From an uncultured delta proteobacterium (lineage in GTDB: Bacteria > Desulfobacterota > Syntrophorhabdia > Syntrophorhabdales > WCHB1-27): DNA of 64,000 bases. Below the pieces are notes generated by a model. That model had not been told where the DNA came from and did no database searches. It was given only the letters and a program-made list of their open reading frames with translations. Of the stretch, positions 10,219 to 49,813 are shown piece by piece. The stretch is from assembly GCA_963810935.1 (NCBI GenBank), contig CAWEPK010000003.1, positions 96,001 to 160,000 of the forward strand. The letters run 5' to 3'. A program made the position numbers and the translations under genes. Position 1 is the first letter of the stretch, and each line of letters begins with the position of its first letter.

Positions 10219-11619
10219 CTACCCATACCTGGTTATCCTATACTTCTTCATAAGTGCATAGAGCCTGGGCCTGGACAGCCCGGATATCCTGCAGGCTTCC
10301 CTTATGTTGCTGCCCGCTATGCTCATAAGGTCTTCAAGGTACTGCCTTTCCGCCTCTTGTAAGGCAGACTCCCTGAACCCCTTCAAAGGAGGAAGGGGTG
10401 AAGAAGGGGCACTCTCTTTAGCAGGCAGGTGGGTCTCTTTGGTCACAGACGCCCTTGCCAGGCTCACTCTTATATGGGTAGGCAGGTGCTTGGGGAACAA
10501 GGTAGGCTCATGCCTTGCCATGGTAAGGGCCCTTTCTATGGCATTTACCAGCTCCCGCACGTTCCCCGGCCACTCATAGGTAGACAGGGAGTCCAAAAAC
10601 TCAGGCGCAAACCCCTTGGTCCCTATGCCGTATCTCTCGGAGAGCTTTGCCATGTGGTACATGACAAGCTCCCTTATATCTTCCTTCCTCTCCCTTAGAG
10701 GGGGCAGGTCTATGGTAAAGGTCTGGAGACGGAAGAGAAGGTCCCTCCTGAAGTGGTGGGACTCGACCATCTCATCCAGGTTCCTGTTCGTAGCAGCCAC
10801 CAGCCTGAAGTCCGACTCTATCTCCTTCTTCGAGCCGACGGGCCTGAACCTGTGCTCCTGCAATACCCTTAAGAAGGCCTTCTGTATGACAGGGGGCAGC
10901 TCTCCCACCTCATCTAAGAAGAGGGTGCCCCCGTGCGCCTGCCTGACAAGGCCGTCCTGGTCCTTATCGGCCCCTGTGAAGGCCCCCTTCTCATAGCCGA
11001 ACAGGGTGCTCTCTACCAGTGTCTTAGGCAAGGCTGTGCAGTCTACGACAACGAAGTTCTTATTGGCCCTCGGGGAGTTCTCGTGTATGGCCCTGGCGAA
11101 CAACTCCTTGCCTGTGCCCGTCTCCCCTATGATTAAGACCGAGGCGTCGGAGTTTGCCGCCTGGGCTAAAACATCGAAGCAGCTTCGCATCCTGGGGGAG
11201 GAGCCTATGATGCCCTCCCACTTCAAGGCAACCGCAGGCTTCCTTGCCCTCTTTTCTTCCCTGTACTGCAATGCCCTTAAGAAGGGGAGCATCATCTCCT
11301 TTATCGATGACGGCTTCTCTATGTAGTCCCATGCCCCGTTCTTGATGGCAAGCTCCGCCCCGTCCGGGTCTCCATAGCCGGTCATTATGATAACCTCGGG
11401 AGGGGGGCTTATCTCTCTTATCTTGGGAAGGATGTCCAGGCCTGAGCCGTCAGGCATGCGGATATCGAGGAAGACTATGTCGAAGCTGTCTTTGGAAAGC
11501 TGCCTCATCCCGTCGGTCAGGGTATGCGCCGATTGGGCATCGTGACCTGTCCTATGCACCATGCTTGAGAGCATGTCGCACATGACCACATCGTCATCGA
11601 TGATCATTACGTGGGCCAT
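10219..11619 (-). CDS. Sigma54-dependent response regulator (REC-AAA+-Fis HTH), no adjacent kinase
   Basis: Start MAHVMIIDDD; GETGTGKE, GAFTGA, WPGNVREL; C-terminal HTH ACRISGLSRPRLY. Confidence 0.93.
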   Translation of the reverse strand: MAHVMIIDDDVVMCDMLSSMVHRTGHDAQSAHTLTDGMRQLSKDSFDIVFLDIRMPDGSGLDILPKIREISPPPEVIIMTGYGDPDGAELAIKNGAWDYIEKPSSIKEMMLPFLRALQYREEKRARKPAVALKWEGIIGSSPRMRSCFDVLAQAANSDASVLIIGETGTGKELFARAIHENSPRANKNFVVVDCTALPKTLVESTLFGYEKGAFTGADKDQDGLVRQAHGGTLFLDEVGELPPVIQKAFLRVLQEHRFRPVGSKKEIESDFRLVAATNRNLDEMVESHHFRRDLLFRLQTFTIDLPPLRERKEDIRELVMYHMAKLSERYGIGTKGFAPEFLDSLSTYEWPGNVRELVNAIERALTMARHEPTLFPKHLPTHIRVSLARASVTKETHLPAKESAPSSPLPPLKGFRESALQEAERQYLEDLMSIAGSNIREACRISGLSRPRLYALMKKYRITRYG

Positions 11620-11764
11620 AGTCTTGGGGTCAGGATTTCTGTCCGGTACTGCGTTACACTTAATTAGCGAAACGGAATAAGTATAATTGTATAGTAGTAT
11701 TGCGGTTCTGACAATGAGAATTTTGCGGTTGAGCGCGGGTTGCGCGCCGTTTGCCGGAGGGATA

Positions 11765-12673
11765 GTGAAGGTAAGCAACGAGAAGCGGCTCGTATGGGCC
11801 ATGGTCGTCACGTTCGTCGTGCTTTTCGCCGAGCTTGTCGGCGGCATGGTCGCCAACAGTCTGGCCTTGCTGGGAGACGCGGGCCACGTGCTCACCGACG
11901 TCCTTGCCCTGGCCTTAAGCCTCATTGCGGTGTACGTGGGCAAGCGGCCGTCCGACTACAGGGCCACGTACGGCTACCAGCGCATCGGGATACTTGCCGC
12001 CCTCATTAACGGATCGACCCTTGTGGTCATCTCGCTTTTTATCTTTATCGAGACATATAAGCGCTTCTTTGCTCCTCCGGCAGTCGATTCCGGGCTTATG
12101 CTCATTGTGGCGGTCACCGGCCTCGTGGGGAATTTCATCATGGCGCGCCTCATCGGGTCGGACCATGCCGACCTTAACATGAAAAGCGCCCGCCTCCACG
12201 TGATAGGCGACATGCTGACCTCCGTCGGCGTCATCGCGGCAGGAGTCGTGATCCATTTTACAGGCTGGCGCCTGGCCGACCCGATTGCCGGCGCGGTCGT
12301 CGGCGTCGTCATAATCTACGGGGGCTGGCGGGTCATCAAGGAGGCCCTGTGGGTCTTCCTCGAGCTTTCTCCCCTCGGGTTTCACGCGGAGGAGATATCG
12401 AAGGCGATCTGCGGGATGGAGCACGTCCTGGGCGTGCACGATATTCACATCTGGTCCATAGGGCACGGGGTGCCCGCCTTCTCCGCGCACGTTCTCTTGA
12501 ACGACAGGAAGATAAGCGAGACGGACGAAGTGAGGCGGGCGATCGAAGAGAAGCTCGCTTCCTTAGGGATCAGGCATACGGTCCTGCAGATGGAGTGCGC
12601 GGAATGCCAGACAAACGGCCTTTATTGCCAGATCGCGGGCCCGGAAGAGGTAGATCTACACCACCATAATTGA
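11765..12673 (+). CDS. Cation diffusion facilitator (CzcD/ZitB-like)
   Basis: SLALLGDAGHVLTD, LHVIGD, VHDIHIWS; GTG start after GGAGG; Cys/His-rich tail. Confidence 0.92.
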   Translation: MKVSNEKRLVWAMVVTFVVLFAELVGGMVANSLALLGDAGHVLTDVLALALSLIAVYVGKRPSDYRATYGYQRIGILAALINGSTLVVISLFIFIETYKRFFAPPAVDSGLMLIVAVTGLVGNFIMARLIGSDHADLNMKSARLHVIGDMLTSVGVIAAGVVIHFTGWRLADPIAGAVVGVVIIYGGWRVIKEALWVFLELSPLGFHAEEISKAICGMEHVLGVHDIHIWSIGHGVPAFSAHVLLNDRKISETDEVRRAIEEKLASLGIRHTVLQMECAECQTNGLYCQIAGPEEVDLHHHN

Positions 12674-37689: not shown

Positions 37690-38457
37690 ATGGCCGACCA
37701 TGATAAGATGCTCAAGCTTTTGGCAGGGAAAGATACGCCGACCCCTGATGACTTCAAAGCCTTAGTGACAGGCATTGACAGCCACGAGGTTCTTGCGAAG
37801 GTCTTCCTTCTTGAAGGTGTTCCGTTCGTTTTCAAGGACAGTCCAATGAAATATGTGATTTTCCGTGAACAGGTAGCTGAGCGTTTCGGAGTTGGTTCTC
37901 ATGACGTCTGCATCGTTGGAAGCGCGAAACTGGGATTCAGCCCTTCGCCATACAAGTTTGGCACCTCATTTTCGACTACCTCCGACGTTGATGTCGTGGT
38001 GGTTTCTGAATCCCTTTTCTATAGGGGCTCACGGGAATTGTTGGGTGTTCTCGAACGGCTAGAGCCTGCCCTTTATAAGATAAGAAACCCAGGCCCCACC
38101 CCACCCGTCGTTTCTCTTCAAGATTGGAGGAGCGTTAAGGAAGCTGTGCGCAACTTCGTCTATCGGAATTTCAATCCCGGGCTGTTGCCTTTTGACCACG
38201 CCCTAAGGATTGATATCTTTAGTAAGATCAGCAGTACTGCGGGCCTATTTCTCGCTCTTGAACCGCAGGTCTTTGTTTCAACGATTCGATGTCGAATCTT
38301 CTGCGATTGGAAGGCAGCCGAGGATTACTACGCCAATACCTTACGGCAAGCTAAAGAACAGTTTACCAAGGGTACTCAGAGCGAAGCCGATATCGATGAA
38401 GAAGGAGTAACTTTAGAAACGGCGAGCTCGGTTGAGACAGGCAGAGAGGGCGGGTAA
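37690..38457 (+). CDS. Orphan Pol-beta-superfamily nucleotidyltransferase-like protein, low-GC
   Basis: IVGSAKLGFS...SDVDVVVV (hG[GS]...DhD) motif; SD GGAG; composition differs from neighbours. Confidence 0.7.
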   Translation: MADHDKMLKLLAGKDTPTPDDFKALVTGIDSHEVLAKVFLLEGVPFVFKDSPMKYVIFREQVAERFGVGSHDVCIVGSAKLGFSPSPYKFGTSFSTTSDVDVVVVSESLFYRGSRELLGVLERLEPALYKIRNPGPTPPVVSLQDWRSVKEAVRNFVYRNFNPGLLPFDHALRIDIFSKISSTAGLFLALEPQVFVSTIRCRIFCDWKAAEDYYANTLRQAKEQFTKGTQSEADIDEEGVTLETASSVETGREGG

Positions 38458-41806: not shown

Positions 41807-42418
41807 ATGTTCGTGACCGACGGGGAATCGAATTACGATAAGGTCTGCGCGGAGCTGCTCGTTCTGGTCGATAAAGAGGGCGCGGCTGCGAACGCGCCGG
41901 CGCTCGACGGGAGCCTGCACGAAGGCTTTGCCGCCATGCCGCTGTTCGGCCGTGACTGCATCGTCCGTCCGGACGGAGTATACATGAACGGGCAGAAGGT
42001 AGACTTTATGGGCGCCATCCTTATTGCGCGCTACCTGCTGCAGGCAGGCAAAGAGCCCGTCGGCCAAACATGGCTGCCGTATAGGGACTTAAAGGACGGC
42101 GGCCAGTTCTCTTCATTCATAAAGGCTAATATTGAGGACAAGATAGCGCGGATGTTCGGCGGTAACCGAGGGCTCCTGCACGTGCGCCTGAGCGCCCTCG
42201 GGGCAGTGGCGGCGCCGGACGGCATACGCGGAGACATCGCCCTGGTGCTCCATCCTCTGCCCCTTTTGCCCGTGCTCTGCCTGTTCTGGGACTCAGACGA
42301 GGAGTTCCCCGCTTCGTTCCAGTTCCTTTTCGACAAATCCGCCTCGTCGTACCTCGACCTGGAATCGCTCGCAGTAACGCTTCAATATATCTACCTGAAG
42401 GTTACCGGGGAAGCATGA
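41807..42418 (+). CDS. DUF3786 domain protein
   Basis: ARYLL, W.PYRDLKDG, PLP.LP..C.FWDSDEEFPA...FLFD. Confidence 0.78.
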   Translation: MFVTDGESNYDKVCAELLVLVDKEGAAANAPALDGSLHEGFAAMPLFGRDCIVRPDGVYMNGQKVDFMGAILIARYLLQAGKEPVGQTWLPYRDLKDGGQFSSFIKANIEDKIARMFGGNRGLLHVRLSALGAVAAPDGIRGDIALVLHPLPLLPVLCLFWDSDEEFPASFQFLFDKSASSYLDLESLAVTLQYIYLKVTGEA

Positions 42419-43668
42419 TAAAGGTCCTTATCATCGATGACGAGCATGCCATCCGCGAGAGCCTTTCCTCTATATTGAGCGACGAAGGGTTCGATGTCTT
42501 ATCGGCCCGCGACGGCAAAGAGGGACTTGCCCTTTTCGAGAAGGAGAAGCCCCGCGTAGTCCTCCTCGATATCTGGATGCCGGAAATGGACGGGCTTGAG
42601 GTGTTGAAGCTCGTCCGCGAGATGGACCACGAGGCGGTAGTTATCGTCATATCAGGCCACGGCACGATCTCGACGGCAGTAGAGGCAGTCAAGATGGGCG
42701 CCACCGATTTCCTCGAAAAGCCGCTATCGATCGACAAGGTCCTCGAAGTGATCAACAGGGGCCTTGCAGGAAAAGGGAACGGCAGAGAGAAGACGGGCGG
42801 CAAGGTGCGGATCGAGATCGCAAAGGGCCGCCAGGCATGCAGGCAGAAAACGGTCGGCAAAAGCATCGTCATGTACGGGATGGGCCTCTTCTCCGGCGTA
42901 AAGACGGGCATTATCCTCCTTCCCATGCCGCCGGACACGGGTATTATCTTCGAGCAGGTGCCGGAGGGCGAGCGCATACCTGCCTTCATCGATTACGTCT
43001 ATTCGTCGGGAAACGCCTCCTCGATAAGGGGGAAAAGCTGCACCATACGGACCATCGAGCACTTGATGGCTGCCTGTCACATGTACGGCATCACGAACCT
43101 CCTCGTCAAGGTGAGTGATGAAGTGCCCATATTCGACGGGTCTGCCCGCGAGATTTGCACCAATATAGAAGAAGCGGGCATAACGGAGCAGAACCAGGGC
43201 ATAGAGCCGCTCGTGGTCGGCGAGCGCGTCGAGCTTCCGAACCTGCCGGGCGACAAGTACCTCTCGATAGAGCCGGCCGAGGAGTTCGAGATCGACTATA
43301 CCCTGGACCAGCCGCGCCCCATAGGCAAGCAGAGGTACGTATTCAAAGGGGGCAAAGAGGCCTTCCTTCGGGAGATAGCGCCTGCCCGCACTTTCGGCTC
43401 GATAAAGGATTTCGAGAGGCTCGAAAAGATGGGCCTTGCGGCGGGGAGCCGCGTCAGCAGCGTCATGAGTAACGTCATTCTCCTCAACAACGAGGAGGTG
43501 ATCAATACGGAGTCGAGGTTTGCCGACGAGTTCGTGAGGCACAAGATCCTCGACTTGATCGGAGACCTCTACCTTGCCGCCCGCCCCGTGATAGGCAAGG
43601 TAATTGCCCGCCAGACGGGGCACCTCGAAAACATCGCCCTCGTAAAACGGCTGAAAGCCGGTTACTGA
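42415..43668 (+). CDS. lpxC: Receiver domain fused to UDP-3-O-acyl-GlcNAc deacetylase LpxC
   Basis: REC (IIDDE, LDIWMP, SGHG, EKP) followed in frame by LpxC motifs QKT..GMGLFSG, TIEHLMAA, PIFDGSA, ARTFG, HKILDLIGDL, GH. Confidence 0.9.
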   Translation: MIKVLIIDDEHAIRESLSSILSDEGFDVLSARDGKEGLALFEKEKPRVVLLDIWMPEMDGLEVLKLVREMDHEAVVIVISGHGTISTAVEAVKMGATDFLEKPLSIDKVLEVINRGLAGKGNGREKTGGKVRIEIAKGRQACRQKTVGKSIVMYGMGLFSGVKTGIILLPMPPDTGIIFEQVPEGERIPAFIDYVYSSGNASSIRGKSCTIRTIEHLMAACHMYGITNLLVKVSDEVPIFDGSAREICTNIEEAGITEQNQGIEPLVVGERVELPNLPGDKYLSIEPAEEFEIDYTLDQPRPIGKQRYVFKGGKEAFLREIAPARTFGSIKDFERLEKMGLAAGSRVSSVMSNVILLNNEEVINTESRFADEFVRHKILDLIGDLYLAARPVIGKVIARQTGHLENIALVKRLKAGY

Positions 43669-45195: not shown

Positions 45196-48100
45196 CTATC
45201 TGCACGAGACGAAGCGGATCTCGTTGGCGGAAGACGAGAGGACGTCGCCGATCAGTCCCACAGCTTCCGCTATCTGCTCGTCCGTATTGCCTAGCCCTAA
45301 GGAGAAGCGCAGCGAGCAGTGGGCCTCTTCCTCGGTCATGCCCATCGCGACAAGGACGTGGGACGGCTCGGGTGAGCCAGATTTGCATGCCGAGCCGGAG
45401 GAGAAGAAGACGCCCCTGGCATCGAGGGCAAGTAGGAGCGATTCTCCGCGGACGCCCGGCAGGGTCACGTTAAGCGTATTGGGCAGCCTTCTTTCAGGAT
45501 GGCCGTTCAGCCTGGCGCCGGGGACTATCTTTTGGATGCCGTCAAAAAGGGCATCCCGCATCCCGGCTACGCGGCCGCCCATCTGCGAAAGGCGCTCCGA
45601 TGCAAGCAGCGCCGCCCTACCGGCGGCCACGATGGCCGGCGTATTCTCGGTCCCTCCCCTCAGTCCGCCCTCCTGTTTGCCTCCGTGGATCAGTGCCTCG
45701 CCCCCATCGACCCCTTTCCGCACGTAGACCGCCCCGACCCCTTTCGGGCCGTAAAACTTATGGGCCGAAAGGGTGAGGAAGTCGACGCTCCATCGGGCCG
45801 CATCGACTTCTATCCTGCCTGCCGCCTGCACGGCGTCCGTGTGGAAGAGCACGCCCTTTTGGCGGGCTATGCGGGCCAGCTCCGCAATGGGCTGGAGCGT
45901 ACCCGTCTCGTTGTTCGCCGCCATGATGCTCACAAGGCACGTCCTTTCGGTGATCGCCCTACTGAGGGCCTCCGGTGCGACCAGGCCGTATGCGTCAACG
46001 GGCAGGTACGTTACTTCGAGGCCGATCTTTTCAAGGAAGCGGCAGGCGGCCAGCACGGAGGGGTGCTCGACCTTTGATGTGATAAGGTGGTTTTTTGCAG
46101 GGGCTGACGCGAGGGCAACGCCCTTGATGACGAAATTATTGGCCTCGGAACCGCCGCTCGTAAAAACGAGTCTTCGGGGCGTGCAGCCCGCGAGAATGGA
46201 AAGGCTTCTGCGCGCCTGCTCGATTGCCCCGTGCGCCTCCCTGCCCGCTGAATAGATGGCCGATGCATTGCCGTAGCGCCCCAGGGCCTCTACCATCACT
46301 TCTTTCACGGAGGCGTCCATCGGGGTCGTCGCATTGTGGTCGAGGTATATCGGCTCGCGCACCTGCGCAGCGGGGCCTGATGCGCCGCCCGTCTCGTATT
46401 CCCCGGTCCCGACCGTTTGCCGCCCGCCTGCGCCTGCGCGTTCCACTTCGCAGAGGAGCGCCTTGTACGCGGGGAAGCCGGAAATAGGGTCGAAGTTGTC
46501 GAGGTCCGTCAATTCGTTGACACAAGCGGCACGCCAATCGTCCGAGCCGAGGGCGCCGCCACCTGCCCCGCTCGCCTCGACCGCCCCTTCCACGATATCG
46601 TCCGTCACCCGCGCGTACATCTCAACGCGGCCTCGGCAGGTGCGCAGGACGACCCTCTCCCCGTCGGCTATGCCCCTGCTTGCAGCGTCTTTGCTGTTGA
46701 TCGCCACGGACGGCGCCCGCAGCTCCTTGCCGAGGCCGGGGATGGAATGATGGAGGGAGTGGAGGTCCGCATTGTGGTGCGCGCCGGAATTGAAGACAAG
46801 GGGGTGGCGGGCCGCGAGGTCCGGCCTCGATGCCGGACTCTCGGTCGGCTCGACATAGCGCGGCAGGGGGTCGTAGCCGTATTCTTCGAGGAGCGTTGAG
46901 GCGATCTCGAACTTGCCCGTAGGCGTCTCGAAACCGGGTTTGCCGTCTTCCCTGAGCAGGCCCTTTTCCCATTTGCGATACTCCATCATCACGGGGGGCG
47001 CCTGAACGCTTCCGCCCGCGTTCCGCACGGCCCGTGGCGTGAAGCCAGAGCCGTCAAGCACGTAGGCCAACAGGCTTTCCGTATCCTGCGGAAAGAGATG
47101 GCCGTATCCCAGACGGGCAGCAAGCTCCGCGAGGATAAGAAAGTCGTACCGTGCATCGTTGACGGGCGCAGCGAGCTGCTCGCGTATGCGAAACACGGAG
47201 TCGTAGACCATGTATGATTCCGTCTCGTAGTAAGTGCATGCGGGAAGGACTATATCGGCGTAGGCCATATCGGCCGTCCACTGGCGGTCGACGCAGACGA
47301 AGAAATCGAGGCCGGCCAGGGTCTTGCGCCAGACTTGCGATGCCGGCCAGGACGTAATGAGCGACGCGCCGAGGCTGAATAATGCCCGTATGCGGTAAGG
47401 GTCCGAGTGGAGCACGGCCTGCGGCAGGGCTATCGCATGGAACTCGCCCCGATAACGCGTGTAGACAGGGAACCTGTTGTGGCCGGCCGCCTTCGAGGCG
47501 TTCGGGTTGGCGAGCAGGCCGGCGCGGTTTATGGGGAACATCGAGCCATTCATTTTAAAGCACTGTCCGCCCGGCACGTCCAGGTTGCCGGAGAGGGCGA
47601 GCAGGGTAAAGACCGCGCGCACCGTCTGGACGCCGTTCCCGTTGTATTCAAGGCCCGCGTACATAACGGGCGCTACGCCGTCTGCAGCCGCCAGGCGCCG
47701 CGCGCAGGACCTGACCGTCTCCGCAGATACGCCCGTGATGCCCTCTACGTAGTCGGGCCTGAAGTGCTGCACGTACTCGCTGAACGCATCGAAGCCCGTA
47801 GTCCAGTTACGGGCGAACGCCTCATCGTACAACTCTTCCTCGATGAGGACGTTGCACATGCCGAGGGCCAGCGCGCAATCCGTACCTGGCCTCGGGTGTA
47901 TCCATGAGGTGCCGGGCCAGCGTGCTAGGGAGGTCTTCCTGGGGTCGATGACGATTATTTCGGCCCCGCGCCTGCGGGCGGCCTCGATCTTGGGCAAGTC
48001 GTCCGGCGGGCAGTGGGCGGCCGGGTTCTTGCCCCATATCAGGACGAGCCGGGCGCGGTCGATTTCGGCGAACATGTCGATATACATGCGGCCCATCGTT

Positions 48101-48585
48101 ACATGGGGGGCGATCATGGCGAAGGCGACGTAGCAGAGGGCGCCGACGCCCAGGGTATTGGGCGAGCCGTAAGGAAAAAGCACGCTCGAGGCCGACGAGA
48201 CCGCGACTCCGGCAGGCTGGAAGACGTCGCAGAGCGCCCGGTCGAAGCTGCCGCTGCCCGTATAGACGGCCGCAGCCTCCGGACCCGATTCCTCGCGTAT
48301 CCGAAAGAGCTTTCCGGCGATCTCATCGTACGCCTCGTCCCAGGAGATCTTCTTGAAGTCGTAGGAGCCTTTCGGCCCCACCCTCCTTAACGGATGGGCG
48401 ATTCTGTGGTCGGAATAGACGATCTCGGGCGAGTGCTCCCCGACCTTGCAGATCATGCCGAACGGCGAAGTCTCGTCCGCCCGCACTGCGCTTATCCTGC
48501 CCGCCTGATCGTAGGAGACGATCACCCCGCAACCTGCCGAGCAGATGCCGCATATGCCTGCTTTCTCGTTCCTGCGCGTTGCCAT
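45196..48585 (-). CDS. Molybdopterin oxidoreductase (acetylene-hydratase-like) / cysteine desulfurase fusion; probable metallopterin-dependent ergothioneine synthase
   Basis: N-terminal CGICSAGC..C Fe-S motif and bis-MGD motifs; C-terminal YLDHNATTP, SAHKFYGPKG, SSGSAC; ends FVSCR; adjacent to egtD-like gene. Confidence 0.88.
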   Translation of the reverse strand: MATRRNEKAGICGICSAGCGVIVSYDQAGRISAVRADETSPFGMICKVGEHSPEIVYSDHRIAHPLRRVGPKGSYDFKKISWDEAYDEIAGKLFRIREESGPEAAAVYTGSGSFDRALCDVFQPAGVAVSSASSVLFPYGSPNTLGVGALCYVAFAMIAPHVTMGRMYIDMFAEIDRARLVLIWGKNPAAHCPPDDLPKIEAARRRGAEIIVIDPRKTSLARWPGTSWIHPRPGTDCALALGMCNVLIEEELYDEAFARNWTTGFDAFSEYVQHFRPDYVEGITGVSAETVRSCARRLAAADGVAPVMYAGLEYNGNGVQTVRAVFTLLALSGNLDVPGGQCFKMNGSMFPINRAGLLANPNASKAAGHNRFPVYTRYRGEFHAIALPQAVLHSDPYRIRALFSLGASLITSWPASQVWRKTLAGLDFFVCVDRQWTADMAYADIVLPACTYYETESYMVYDSVFRIREQLAAPVNDARYDFLILAELAARLGYGHLFPQDTESLLAYVLDGSGFTPRAVRNAGGSVQAPPVMMEYRKWEKGLLREDGKPGFETPTGKFEIASTLLEEYGYDPLPRYVEPTESPASRPDLAARHPLVFNSGAHHNADLHSLHHSIPGLGKELRAPSVAINSKDAASRGIADGERVVLRTCRGRVEMYARVTDDIVEGAVEASGAGGGALGSDDWRAACVNELTDLDNFDPISGFPAYKALLCEVERAGAGGRQTVGTGEYETGGASGPAAQVREPIYLDHNATTPMDASVKEVMVEALGRYGNASAIYSAGREAHGAIEQARRSLSILAGCTPRRLVFTSGGSEANNFVIKGVALASAPAKNHLITSKVEHPSVLAACRFLEKIGLEVTYLPVDAYGLVAPEALSRAITERTCLVSIMAANNETGTLQPIAELARIARQKGVLFHTDAVQAAGRIEVDAARWSVDFLTLSAHKFYGPKGVGAVYVRKGVDGGEALIHGGKQEGGLRGGTENTPAIVAAGRAALLASERLSQMGGRVAGMRDALFDGIQKIVPGARLNGHPERRLPNTLNVTLPGVRGESLLLALDARGVFFSSGSACKSGSPEPSHVLVAMGMTEEEAHCSLRFSLGLGNTDEQIAEAVGLIGDVLSSSANEIRFVSCR

Positions 48586-48655: not shown

Positions 48656-49701
48656 TCAGGGCCCGCCGCCGTTGCGGGGCACGGACGTCCGGTGCGCTCC
48701 ATCCTTGACATAGAGACCGACAGCGAAATAGGATGCCCCGTCCTTCCAGACGTCGAGGGCGCGGAAGCCTGCCCTGCCTGCCGTCTCCGCGAACCCTTCA
48801 ACCGTGTATTTGTAAGAGTTCTCAGTGTGCAGCCGCTCAAGGGCATCGAAGAAGACCGCCTCGTTCGCTACCGTAACGCGCTGGGCGGCAAGGCTCTCCA
48901 GGTACATCTCCACACGCCCCATGCCTTCATTGCAGACGGCCACGTGCCGGAACTTCGCCAGATCGAAGTCGGCGCTCAACTCCCTGTTGAGACGGGCGAG
49001 CAGGTTCAGGTTGAAAGAGGCGGTCACACCTTCGGGATCATCGTAAGCGCGGCTTAGAACGCCGCCGTCCTTCCGGAGGTCGTAGCCGATCAGAAGGCAG
49101 TCGCCTTCGTCCAGGAAGTCGTGGAAGCGGGTGAGGAGCCGGACCGCCTCAAACGGGTCGAGGTTGCCGATGCTTGAGCCGGGGAAGAGGATCAGGCGCC
49201 TTCCGGCCGGCGGCACGATGGGTTTGATCGGGTCGAGCCCCTCCATGAAGTCCATTGCAACCGCGTGAACGGCAACGCCGGGAAAGGTGCGGGCGATATC
49301 TGCGGCCCTGTCGCGCAGGTATTCGCCGGATATATCCAGCGGGACGAAGGACGACACCCGGCCCGTAGCGAGCAGGGTACGCGGACCTTGGCGCAGGCGC
49401 CTGCACCCGGCTCTATAATGCACAAGCGGCTCCCCAGCGGCTCCAGCATGGCGGCTGCGTAGCGCTCCAGAATGGACGTCTCGGCGCGGGTAACGTAATA
49501 GGCGGGCAGCTCGCAAATGAGGTCGAAGAGCCTCGACCCCTCAACATCGTAGAGGTATTTCGGCGGGATCGCCTTCGGCGTCTTCCTGAGGCCCTCGAGC
49601 ACCTCTTCCTCCATGGGCCGCGTGCCGGCCTCCATCTGCGTGAAGCGCGTGCGCACGCCGCGTCCCACGGCCCCTGTCAGCTCCGCTCGGTTTGCCTCCA
49701 T
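48656..49701 (-). CDS. egtD: L-histidine N-alpha-methyltransferase (EgtD-like); frameshift near 49380
   Basis: PKYLYD.EGS.LFD.IC.LP.YY.TRAE, FPGSSIGN, AYDD.EGVTA.FNLN.L, HTENSYKY; SD AAGGAGG before ATG 49701. Confidence 0.88.
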
Positions 49702-49813
49702 GGCCGGTCCCTCCTTCAAAGGAGCAATATAATCACTCGGTTCTGCCATGTATACCCGTGCAAGGCTTTATACGCGAAGGCGCCGGCCCTAGCCGCGTTA
49801 GCCTGCGCCGCTA

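Follow-up and report, generated by a model that had tools for sequence, protein, structure and literature searches.

An NtrX-type receiver domain fused to the LpxC deacetylase may place lipid A synthesis under His-Asp control

The gene at positions 42415..43668 (+ strand) of the 64,000-nucleotide stretch of DNA that was analyzed (the window) encodes a fusion of a phospho-receiver (REC) domain with LpxC, and appears to be the remnant of an ancient fusion of the σ54 activator NtrX with its target enzyme. Before this event, the membrane kinase NtrY would have acted on NtrX and NtrX on lpxC from a σ54 promoter. Afterwards, the transcription parts (GAFTGA, Walker B, and arginine finger) would have decayed and later been dropped, the receiver and LpxC staying intact while the AAA+ and HTH domains were lost. 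Sequence comparison thus suggests a shift of control, from transcription of lpxC to the LpxC protein, and we put at roughly 60% the probability that NtrY sets the phosphorylation of the receiver and directly tunes LpxC activity.

The frame comprises 417 codons without an internal stop, as a preliminary description of this DNA had claimed, and specifies a protein of 417 amino acids. Its N-terminal part is an NtrX-type receiver (residues 4–113, 42424..42753, +; Pfam PF00072 Response_reg, E 3.5e-31), which is followed by a variable linker of low pLDDT and low identity (residues 119–142, 42769..42840, +) and by the LpxC deacetylase domain (residues 144–414, 42844..43656, +; Pfam PF03331, E 1.2e-73; TIGR00325). 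The same description had reported an intact receiver and a full LpxC with its catalytic and Zn residues, and both hold. D8, D9, the phospho-acceptor D52 within LDIWMP (codon 42568-42570), W54, S80, F99, and K102-P103 are all in place, which completes the set of a phosphorylatable receiver (acidic pair, phospho-Asp, Ser/Thr, aromatic switch, and Lys-Pro). On the enzyme side, the fusion exceeds the cut-off of the NCBIfam lpxC model TIGR00325 (213.6 vs 187.25), agrees with the HKxxD and RTF motifs, and retains E215-H216, H376-K377, D380, D384, and H403, of which H216, H376, and D380 are the Zn ligands and E215 and H403 the catalytic residues. These seven residues align with E78, H79, H238, K239, D242, D246, and H265 of E. 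coli LpxC, respectively (E78, H79, and the H19 mentioned below were counted from the alignment, and the other numbers are those that we take to be in use). By fold, cut-off, and motifs this part of the protein is LpxC, and deacetylase activity is predicted for it. A profile search of the genome (93.5% complete, 7% contaminated) produced no second LpxC match, which answers the earlier question of whether this is the only lpxC; lpxB and lpxK are both in the genome. The linker had been called basic and about 25 amino acids long. A linker is there, but it is mixed-charge rather than basic, variable (32% identity within the order vs 0.77 for REC and 0.72 for LpxC), and disordered in the structural model (pLDDT <50 at residues 121–139). 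At this position longer members of the family carry a decayed AAA+ and/or a Fis-type HTH domain, both of which are absent from the 417-residue protein of the window.

The DUF3786 gene (41807..42418, +; Pfam PF12654) overlaps the start of the REC-LpxC gene by ATGA, as previously described. It is a neighbor of the fusion in 17 of the 39 loci of the order, all of them in a single family (f1), and DUF3786 was for this reason rejected as a part of the system. A scan for σ70 promoters and terminators around the REC-LpxC gene gave chance-level results only. Elsewhere in the window, a 1129-residue protein (45196-48585, −) combines a molybdopterin oxidoreductase domain with a class V aminotransferase (cysteine desulfurase-like) domain according to Pfam, and lies beside an EgtD-like methyltransferase (48656-49749, apparently in 2 frames) and an FmdE gene. 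A 255-residue ORF without a Pfam match (37690-38457, +) occupies a lower-GC patch; by sight, its stretch SDVDVVVV resembles a nucleotidyltransferase motif.

Misassembly or chance read-through was rejected as the origin of the fusion. We screened 60 relatives, which represent 4 families of Syntrophorhabdales, the order to which the source names of the close homologs also belong. The full-length fusion was present in 51 of them, and in another 4 the contigs are broken but still cross the junction, so that 55/60 relatives are fused rather than encoding the domains separately; 1 is undetermined, and the last 4 (66–95% complete) gave receiver matches only, with no match on the LpxC side. A contig of sequencing run X2 covers 42734-43004, thereby crossing the linker, and is identical to the window there; neither joints nor indels are listed in the 4 runs compared (X1–X3 are one study, possibly the source of the window, and X5 and X6 contribute small shares only). 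Hence neither the misjoin, nor the internal stop, nor the separate domains in relatives that the preliminary description had named as arguments against a genuine fusion were found. At 43513-43514, two bases look swapped relative to the contigs of the 4 runs, which gives Ser for Leu at codon 367; Leu is found there in the contigs of all 4 runs and in 120/121 homologs, and the Ser is probably an assembly slip or a strain difference.

Judged by its sequence, the receiver is derived from NtrX, as its earlier assignment to the NtrX type implied. NtrX is its best NCBIfam match, the whole-protein NtrX score of the fusion staying below the cut-off (131.5 vs 600 bits). In a tree of only 116 columns, the inner order of which is unsure, 38 fused and 22 free NtrX receivers were separated from 26 other receivers of the genome by a split with 98/98 support. 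Scored with a profile built from 32 free NtrX receivers, the fusion came out on top among the genome's 82 receiver domains, with 149 bits vs 115 for the next, and no other NtrX-type receiver was found in the window's genome. The genome also contains 3 copies of a σ54-type regulator with identical receivers (C2:1-1443, C3:4171-5625, and C3:106222-107943 of G000, the last at about 10222-11943 of the window), which are either a recent duplication or an assembly repeat. To follow NtrX across the phylum we used an even draw of 301 genomes, in which membership of the fused clade was defined by an LpxC match of E 1e-66 or better; 82 genomes carry an LpxC of this clade. Free NtrX occurs in only 1 of these 82 (G313, which also has an ordinary lpxC) vs 189 of the 219 others. 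This search scored 5 candidates per genome, and the best NtrX-family E-values per genome were bimodal with a gap from 1e-126 to 1e-136; 30/219 unfused genomes likewise have no strong NtrX match.

The preliminary description had confined the fusion to one lineage. This proved too narrow, because the gene belongs to a family that spans several lineages and goes back to an NtrX::LpxC fusion. The 82 loci comprise 59 REC-LpxC and 21 REC-AAA+-LpxC forms, 1 locus cut by a contig end, and 1 with a stop in the receiver. Long forms match NtrX across nearly the whole NtrX length, their source names include Nitrospinota, and intermediate fusions retain only the HTH or only the AAA+ domain. Among cultured species, Syntrophorhabdus aromaticivorans has the fusion (WP_198017737.1), annotated only as LpxC, and databases label the fusion proteins plain LpxC. 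A comparison of 35 distinct long fusions, which come from few families (one broken row was dropped), showed that 35/35 retain the phospho-Asp as well as the glycines and the lysine of Walker A. The GAFTGA Phe, the Walker B Glu, and the arginine finger are present in 0/35 vs 32/32 free NtrX, and the sensor II Arg is Lys in 34/35. Because GAFTGA, Walker B, and the arginine finger are lost, the established rules for bEBPs imply that the long fusions cannot be working σ54 activators; the dead AAA+ (e.g., in L103:6513-8699 and L091:6780-8978), which lies between receiver and LpxC, could possibly be a pseudo-ATPase that still binds nucleotide. The receiver is interrupted in 3 long fusions, by an in-frame stop in one (L232:2908-2910) and by frame breaks in two (L151 and L154), through either errors or real splits.

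Fused and unfused LpxC domains were divided by a single branch in a tree with 61 vs 30 rows (SH-aLRT 99) and in a second one with 29 vs 10 rows (100/97), the rows being chosen to span families and one row being skipped. A single origin of the short form as one clade was rejected (p-AU 0.012, 39 rows). We read this as one fusion event followed by several losses of the middle part. The order from long to short is drawn from the decay of the AAA+ domain and not from the root, because the earliest-branching fused rows are short forms. Because the genomes are related, the counts make the cases look more independent than they are; the fusion itself arose once. Three genomes (G089, G212, and G313; loci L094, L234, L097, L049, and L038) have an ordinary lpxC adjoining ntrY as well as a fused copy, and family f30 includes genomes with the fused gene only, with the ordinary gene only, and with both. 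The double genomes may represent replacement in progress, transfer, or bin contamination.

Unfused loci provide a candidate picture of the ancestral arrangement. Clusters of lpxC, ntrY, and ntrX were found in 7 of 18 unfused loci inspected, 3 of them tightly coupled, and no HD-GYP gene lies between ntrY and ntrX in these 18 loci. Searching the 400 nt before each gene, we detected a σ54 −24/−12 motif in front of 18/33 unfused lpxC genes (0.3 expected by shuffling), mostly 41–96 nt upstream, in a set made up of the best Pfam scorers plus the cluster loci and not a random draw. The motif precedes 2/103 fused genes (0.9 expected), and was absent before DUF3786 (0/17), before ntrY ahead of fusions (0/21), before orphan ntrY genes (0/29), and from 4 further unfused loci. 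Published work, as far as the accessible parts of these papers go, contains related circuits. Desulfovibrio vulgaris has a σ54 regulator with lpxC as its sole target (PMC3333781), loss of the kinase raises lpxC in D. alaskensis (PMC4045070), and in S. fumaroxidans lpxC lies directly upstream of an operon orthologous to that of Desulfovibrio (PMC3333781; PMC4641369). In Rhodobacter sphaeroides, loss of NtrYX increases lpxC 8.8-fold and LPS twofold, an effect that the authors consider indirect (PMC7240162), and the NtrY of Caulobacter is described as mainly a phosphatase (10.1101/2021.04.17.440287). No link between DVU2934 and NtrX was found in the accessible text of the literature searched for DVU2934.

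The absence of an adjacent kinase, also pointed out in the preliminary description, is confirmed at the locus, with no kinase gene adjoining REC-LpxC in the window, and does not extend to the genome as a whole, where a likely partner is present on contig C10. This orphan gene (G000 C10:342359-344557) encodes an NtrY-type kinase of 733 amino acids and was identified by homology to the kinases located directly upstream of fusions, which share the helix HE[IV]KNPLTPI. It is their single full-length homolog in the genome (E 1e-107 to 1e-120, the next best being 1e-31), with 31% identity over about 735 residues, and consists of 4 membrane helices, HAMP, PAS, HisKA, and HATPase domains with intact H, N, G1, F, and G2 boxes. 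The Pfam NtrY_N model matches the full-length homologs at L103 and L241 but not the C10 kinase at E 0.001. The gene sits between a PgeF-like gene and smpB (neighbors named by sight). Adjacency of kinase and fusion varies: among the 76 loci for which 1 kb or more of upstream sequence was available, ntrY immediately precedes the fusion in 21 and is not adjacent in the other 55, and it adjoins the fusion in 0/39 loci of this order. By presence, NtrY-type kinases were found in 56/61 genomes of the order and, at a threshold of E 1e-55, in 276/301 phylum genomes including 82/82 of the fused clade (of the 25 misses, 20 were listed and 5 read from gaps in the table).

Two groups of genomes bear on how closely LpxC, NtrX, and NtrY travel together. 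In 9/10 genomes of family f29, NtrX is present but no NtrY match reaches E 1e-55, which counts against a strict triad. In family f40, 8 genomes that are 99–100% complete (G131, G191, G220, G249, G275, G298, G320, and G342) have no LpxC, free NtrX, or NtrY match, and G096 of the same family keeps all 3; the 8 may reflect one shared loss, in which the lineage lost lipid A together with its regulator. The genome of the window encodes some 40 kinases by a crude count, and another kinase or acetyl phosphate might phosphorylate the receiver, the orphan NtrY then serving a different regulator. We give little credence to this alternative, because the genome has no other NtrX-type receiver, no receiver gene was seen near the C10 kinase or within 1.5 kb of ntrY in any of the 30 loci inspected in the order, and the orphan kinase has a DHp helix matching the one found in the fusion-adjacent kinases.

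The residues required for phosphotransfer and for catalysis are both conserved. In 136 aligned fusions, D8 is kept in 134, D9 in 136, D52 in 135, S80 in 136, and K102 in 136, while E215, H216, H376, K377, D380, D384, and H403 are kept in 136/136. The receiver is as conserved as LpxC, both within the order (0.77 vs 0.72) and among 34 distant rows (0.43 vs 0.46). This conservation bears on the idea that the receiver is a frozen relic, needed for folding or dimerization, whose phosphorylation has no regulatory effect. Fusions of neighboring genes can be neutral, the AAA+ and HTH domains did decay, and the loss of the C-terminal tail described below may expose a surface that the receiver covers. 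A structural passenger, however, would need none of the 5 near-invariant receiver residues, which persist at 43% receiver identity, and a kinase with intact boxes has been kept in 82/82 genomes though free NtrX is gone from 81 of them. A mere relic therefore seems to us very improbable.

The LpxC domain of the fusions has features of its own that point to where the receiver might act. An AlphaFold model based on the 136-row alignment had a mean pLDDT of 88.7 and, in spite of the disordered linker, a pTM of 0.88, which is above the value of about 0.65 that we estimate for an undocked two-domain chain. In a Foldseek search the best structural matches were solved LpxC structures (TM 0.84–0.93 by target), and none of the best 60 sequence matches was a solved chain covering both domains. 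The fold from the single sequence reached a pLDDT of only 36, and with REC (1–120) and LpxC (140–417) as separate chains the complex scored 0.02 vs a mark of 0.32, a value obtained with no folded controls that counts neither for nor against a contact. V152, G165, and K232 are fixed, being present in 123/123 fused LpxC domains, whereas few or none of the 38 unfused domains have them and these sites are mostly Ser/Arg, Asn, and Glu; position 167 is hydrophobic in the fused domains. In the model, the 3 fixed residues sit on 3 strands of domain I, and probably on its outward face. Together with the pTM of 0.88 they point to a contact between receiver and enzyme; they may also be plain clade markers. 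Two substitutions occur in a sub-lineage. Phe159 (42889-42891) replaces the equivalent of E. coli H19 in 13/39 loci of the order, a position at which His is kept in 38/38 unfused LpxC, and Ser329 (43399-43401) replaces the equivalent of Phe194 in 11/39. The E. coli H19Y change is probably the weak envA1/lpxC101 allele, and the sub-lineage with F159 may accordingly have a tuned-down or altered active site.

Only 14 residues follow H403 in the fusion, which lacks the long tail found at the C-terminus of unfused LpxC (median 16 residues in fused vs 45 in unfused domains, about 29 shorter). In the genome (93.5% complete) there is no match to the YejM/PbgA family (PF11893), and the LapB ribbon match is a 68-residue frame, LapB family matches being found in Gram-positive controls too. 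With neither a C-terminal degron region nor PF11893, the protein does not fall among the E. coli-type LpxC enzymes controlled by FtsH/LapB/YejM. The lost tail and missing YejM/PbgA make a substitute control of turnover plausible, and NtrY might act on the receiver and yet alter the amount or place of LpxC, with the receiver serving as a switchable degradation tag or as a tether to NtrY at the inner membrane. Such a role would agree with the loss of the tail in all fused LpxC, with the flexibility of the linker in the model, and with the fact that other bacteria control LpxC through proteolysis or membrane recruitment, as summarized in the accessible text of a 2025 review (PMC12444477). We nevertheless consider it unlikely, since the fixed residues on neighboring LpxC strands and the high pTM fit direct contact better and no adaptor or protease gene linked to the fusion was seen in the loci inspected.

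For direct control of activity, we favor the following mechanism. NtrY (C10:342359-344557) would set the phosphorylation of D52 on the enzyme, and this state would alter LpxC output post-translationally. In the likeliest mode, the receiver would pack on the family-specific surface of LpxC domain I and restrain the enzyme, phosphorylation would lift the restraint in a CheB-like manner, and NtrY would apply the brake through its phosphatase activity. NtrC-type activators are active when phosphorylated, so that in the ancestral logic phosphate means more LpxC, and we expect this logic to have been kept; phosphorylation is probably the "on" state, which makes up perhaps two thirds of the direct-control reading. 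We infer the partnership with NtrY, the phosphorylation of D52, the effect on activity, its direction, and the interface. The enzyme-level His-Asp control proposed in the preliminary description thus gains strong comparative support from the sole LpxC, the conserved phospho-site, the NtrX origin of the receiver, the retained NtrY, and the loss of free NtrX and of the σ54 motif; its further suggestion, that LPS flux may be gated in this way, stays a conjecture. A bolder version, to which we give somewhat less than even odds, is that a Gram-negative branch swapped transcriptional control of lipid A for a direct phospho-switch on LpxC, with NtrY as envelope sensor and the receiver docked on a new surface, and that the genomes preserve every step: the σ54 cluster, the full fusion with a dead AAA+ that keeps its P-loop and perhaps senses nucleotide, REC-HTH-LpxC, and REC-LpxC.

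A receiver carried by LpxC would add to the ways in which bacteria outside the enterics may set the activity of this enzyme. The signal of NtrYX is disputed, and the fusion would link NtrYX to a single output of its own. It also belongs to a series, of a kind rarely available, in which what was a transcription factor has become a regulatory part of the very enzyme that it targeted. If the phospho-switch is true, sensing the demand for LPS would prove to be the conserved function of NtrYX that has long been sought, and a drug-target enzyme would turn out to have an allosteric site. The literature searched yielded no paper describing a REC-LpxC fusion; supplementary domain tables or response-regulator censuses might list the architecture. 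In the accessible text of the 2025 review of lipid A regulation, which covers proteolysis, MurA binding, membrane recruitment, and transcription, the words "fusion," "fused," and "Desulfovibrio" do not occur (PMC12444477), and in that of 10.1101/2021.11.05.467447 lpxC is mentioned only for the Desulfovibrio operon.

Compared with NtrY/NtrX of R. sphaeroides, Caulobacter, and Brucella, the system shares the NtrX-type receiver with its DxWxP motif, the kinase with 4 membrane helices, HAMP, PAS, HisKA (HEIKNPLTPI), and HATPase, and the link to lpxC and the envelope. It differs in that the fusion has no AAA+ or DNA-binding domain, its output is LpxC in the same chain, and the fusion and kinase genes are unlinked here, whereas the NtrYX systems described so far work through transcription of lpxC, in R. 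sphaeroides by an indirect route. The Desulfovibrio pair DVU2931/DVU2934 (Dde_3000/Dde_3003), from the same phylum, is likewise a kinase and regulator devoted to LpxC; with its GAFTGA regulator and σ54 promoter it resembles the unfused state and is a candidate counterpart of NtrY/NtrX, but unlike the fusion it works on transcription. The LpxC enzymes of E. coli, P. aeruginosa, and Aquifex have the same fold and all the Zn and catalytic residues, and differ from the fusion in its N-terminal receiver, its lack of the C-terminal tail (the FtsH degron region of E. coli), its fixed V152/G165/K232, and, in its sub-lineage, Phe at the His19 and Ser at the Phe194 position. The known controls of LpxC are FtsH/LapB/YejM, MurA binding, Ght, and transcription. 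Response regulators with enzymatic outputs include CheB, PleD/WspR, RpfG, and REC-PP2C proteins, in all of which, as in the fusion, the receiver lies in cis to an enzyme. The outputs of these CheB-type regulators are signaling enzymes, whereas that of the fusion is a single-copy, normally essential biosynthetic enzyme.
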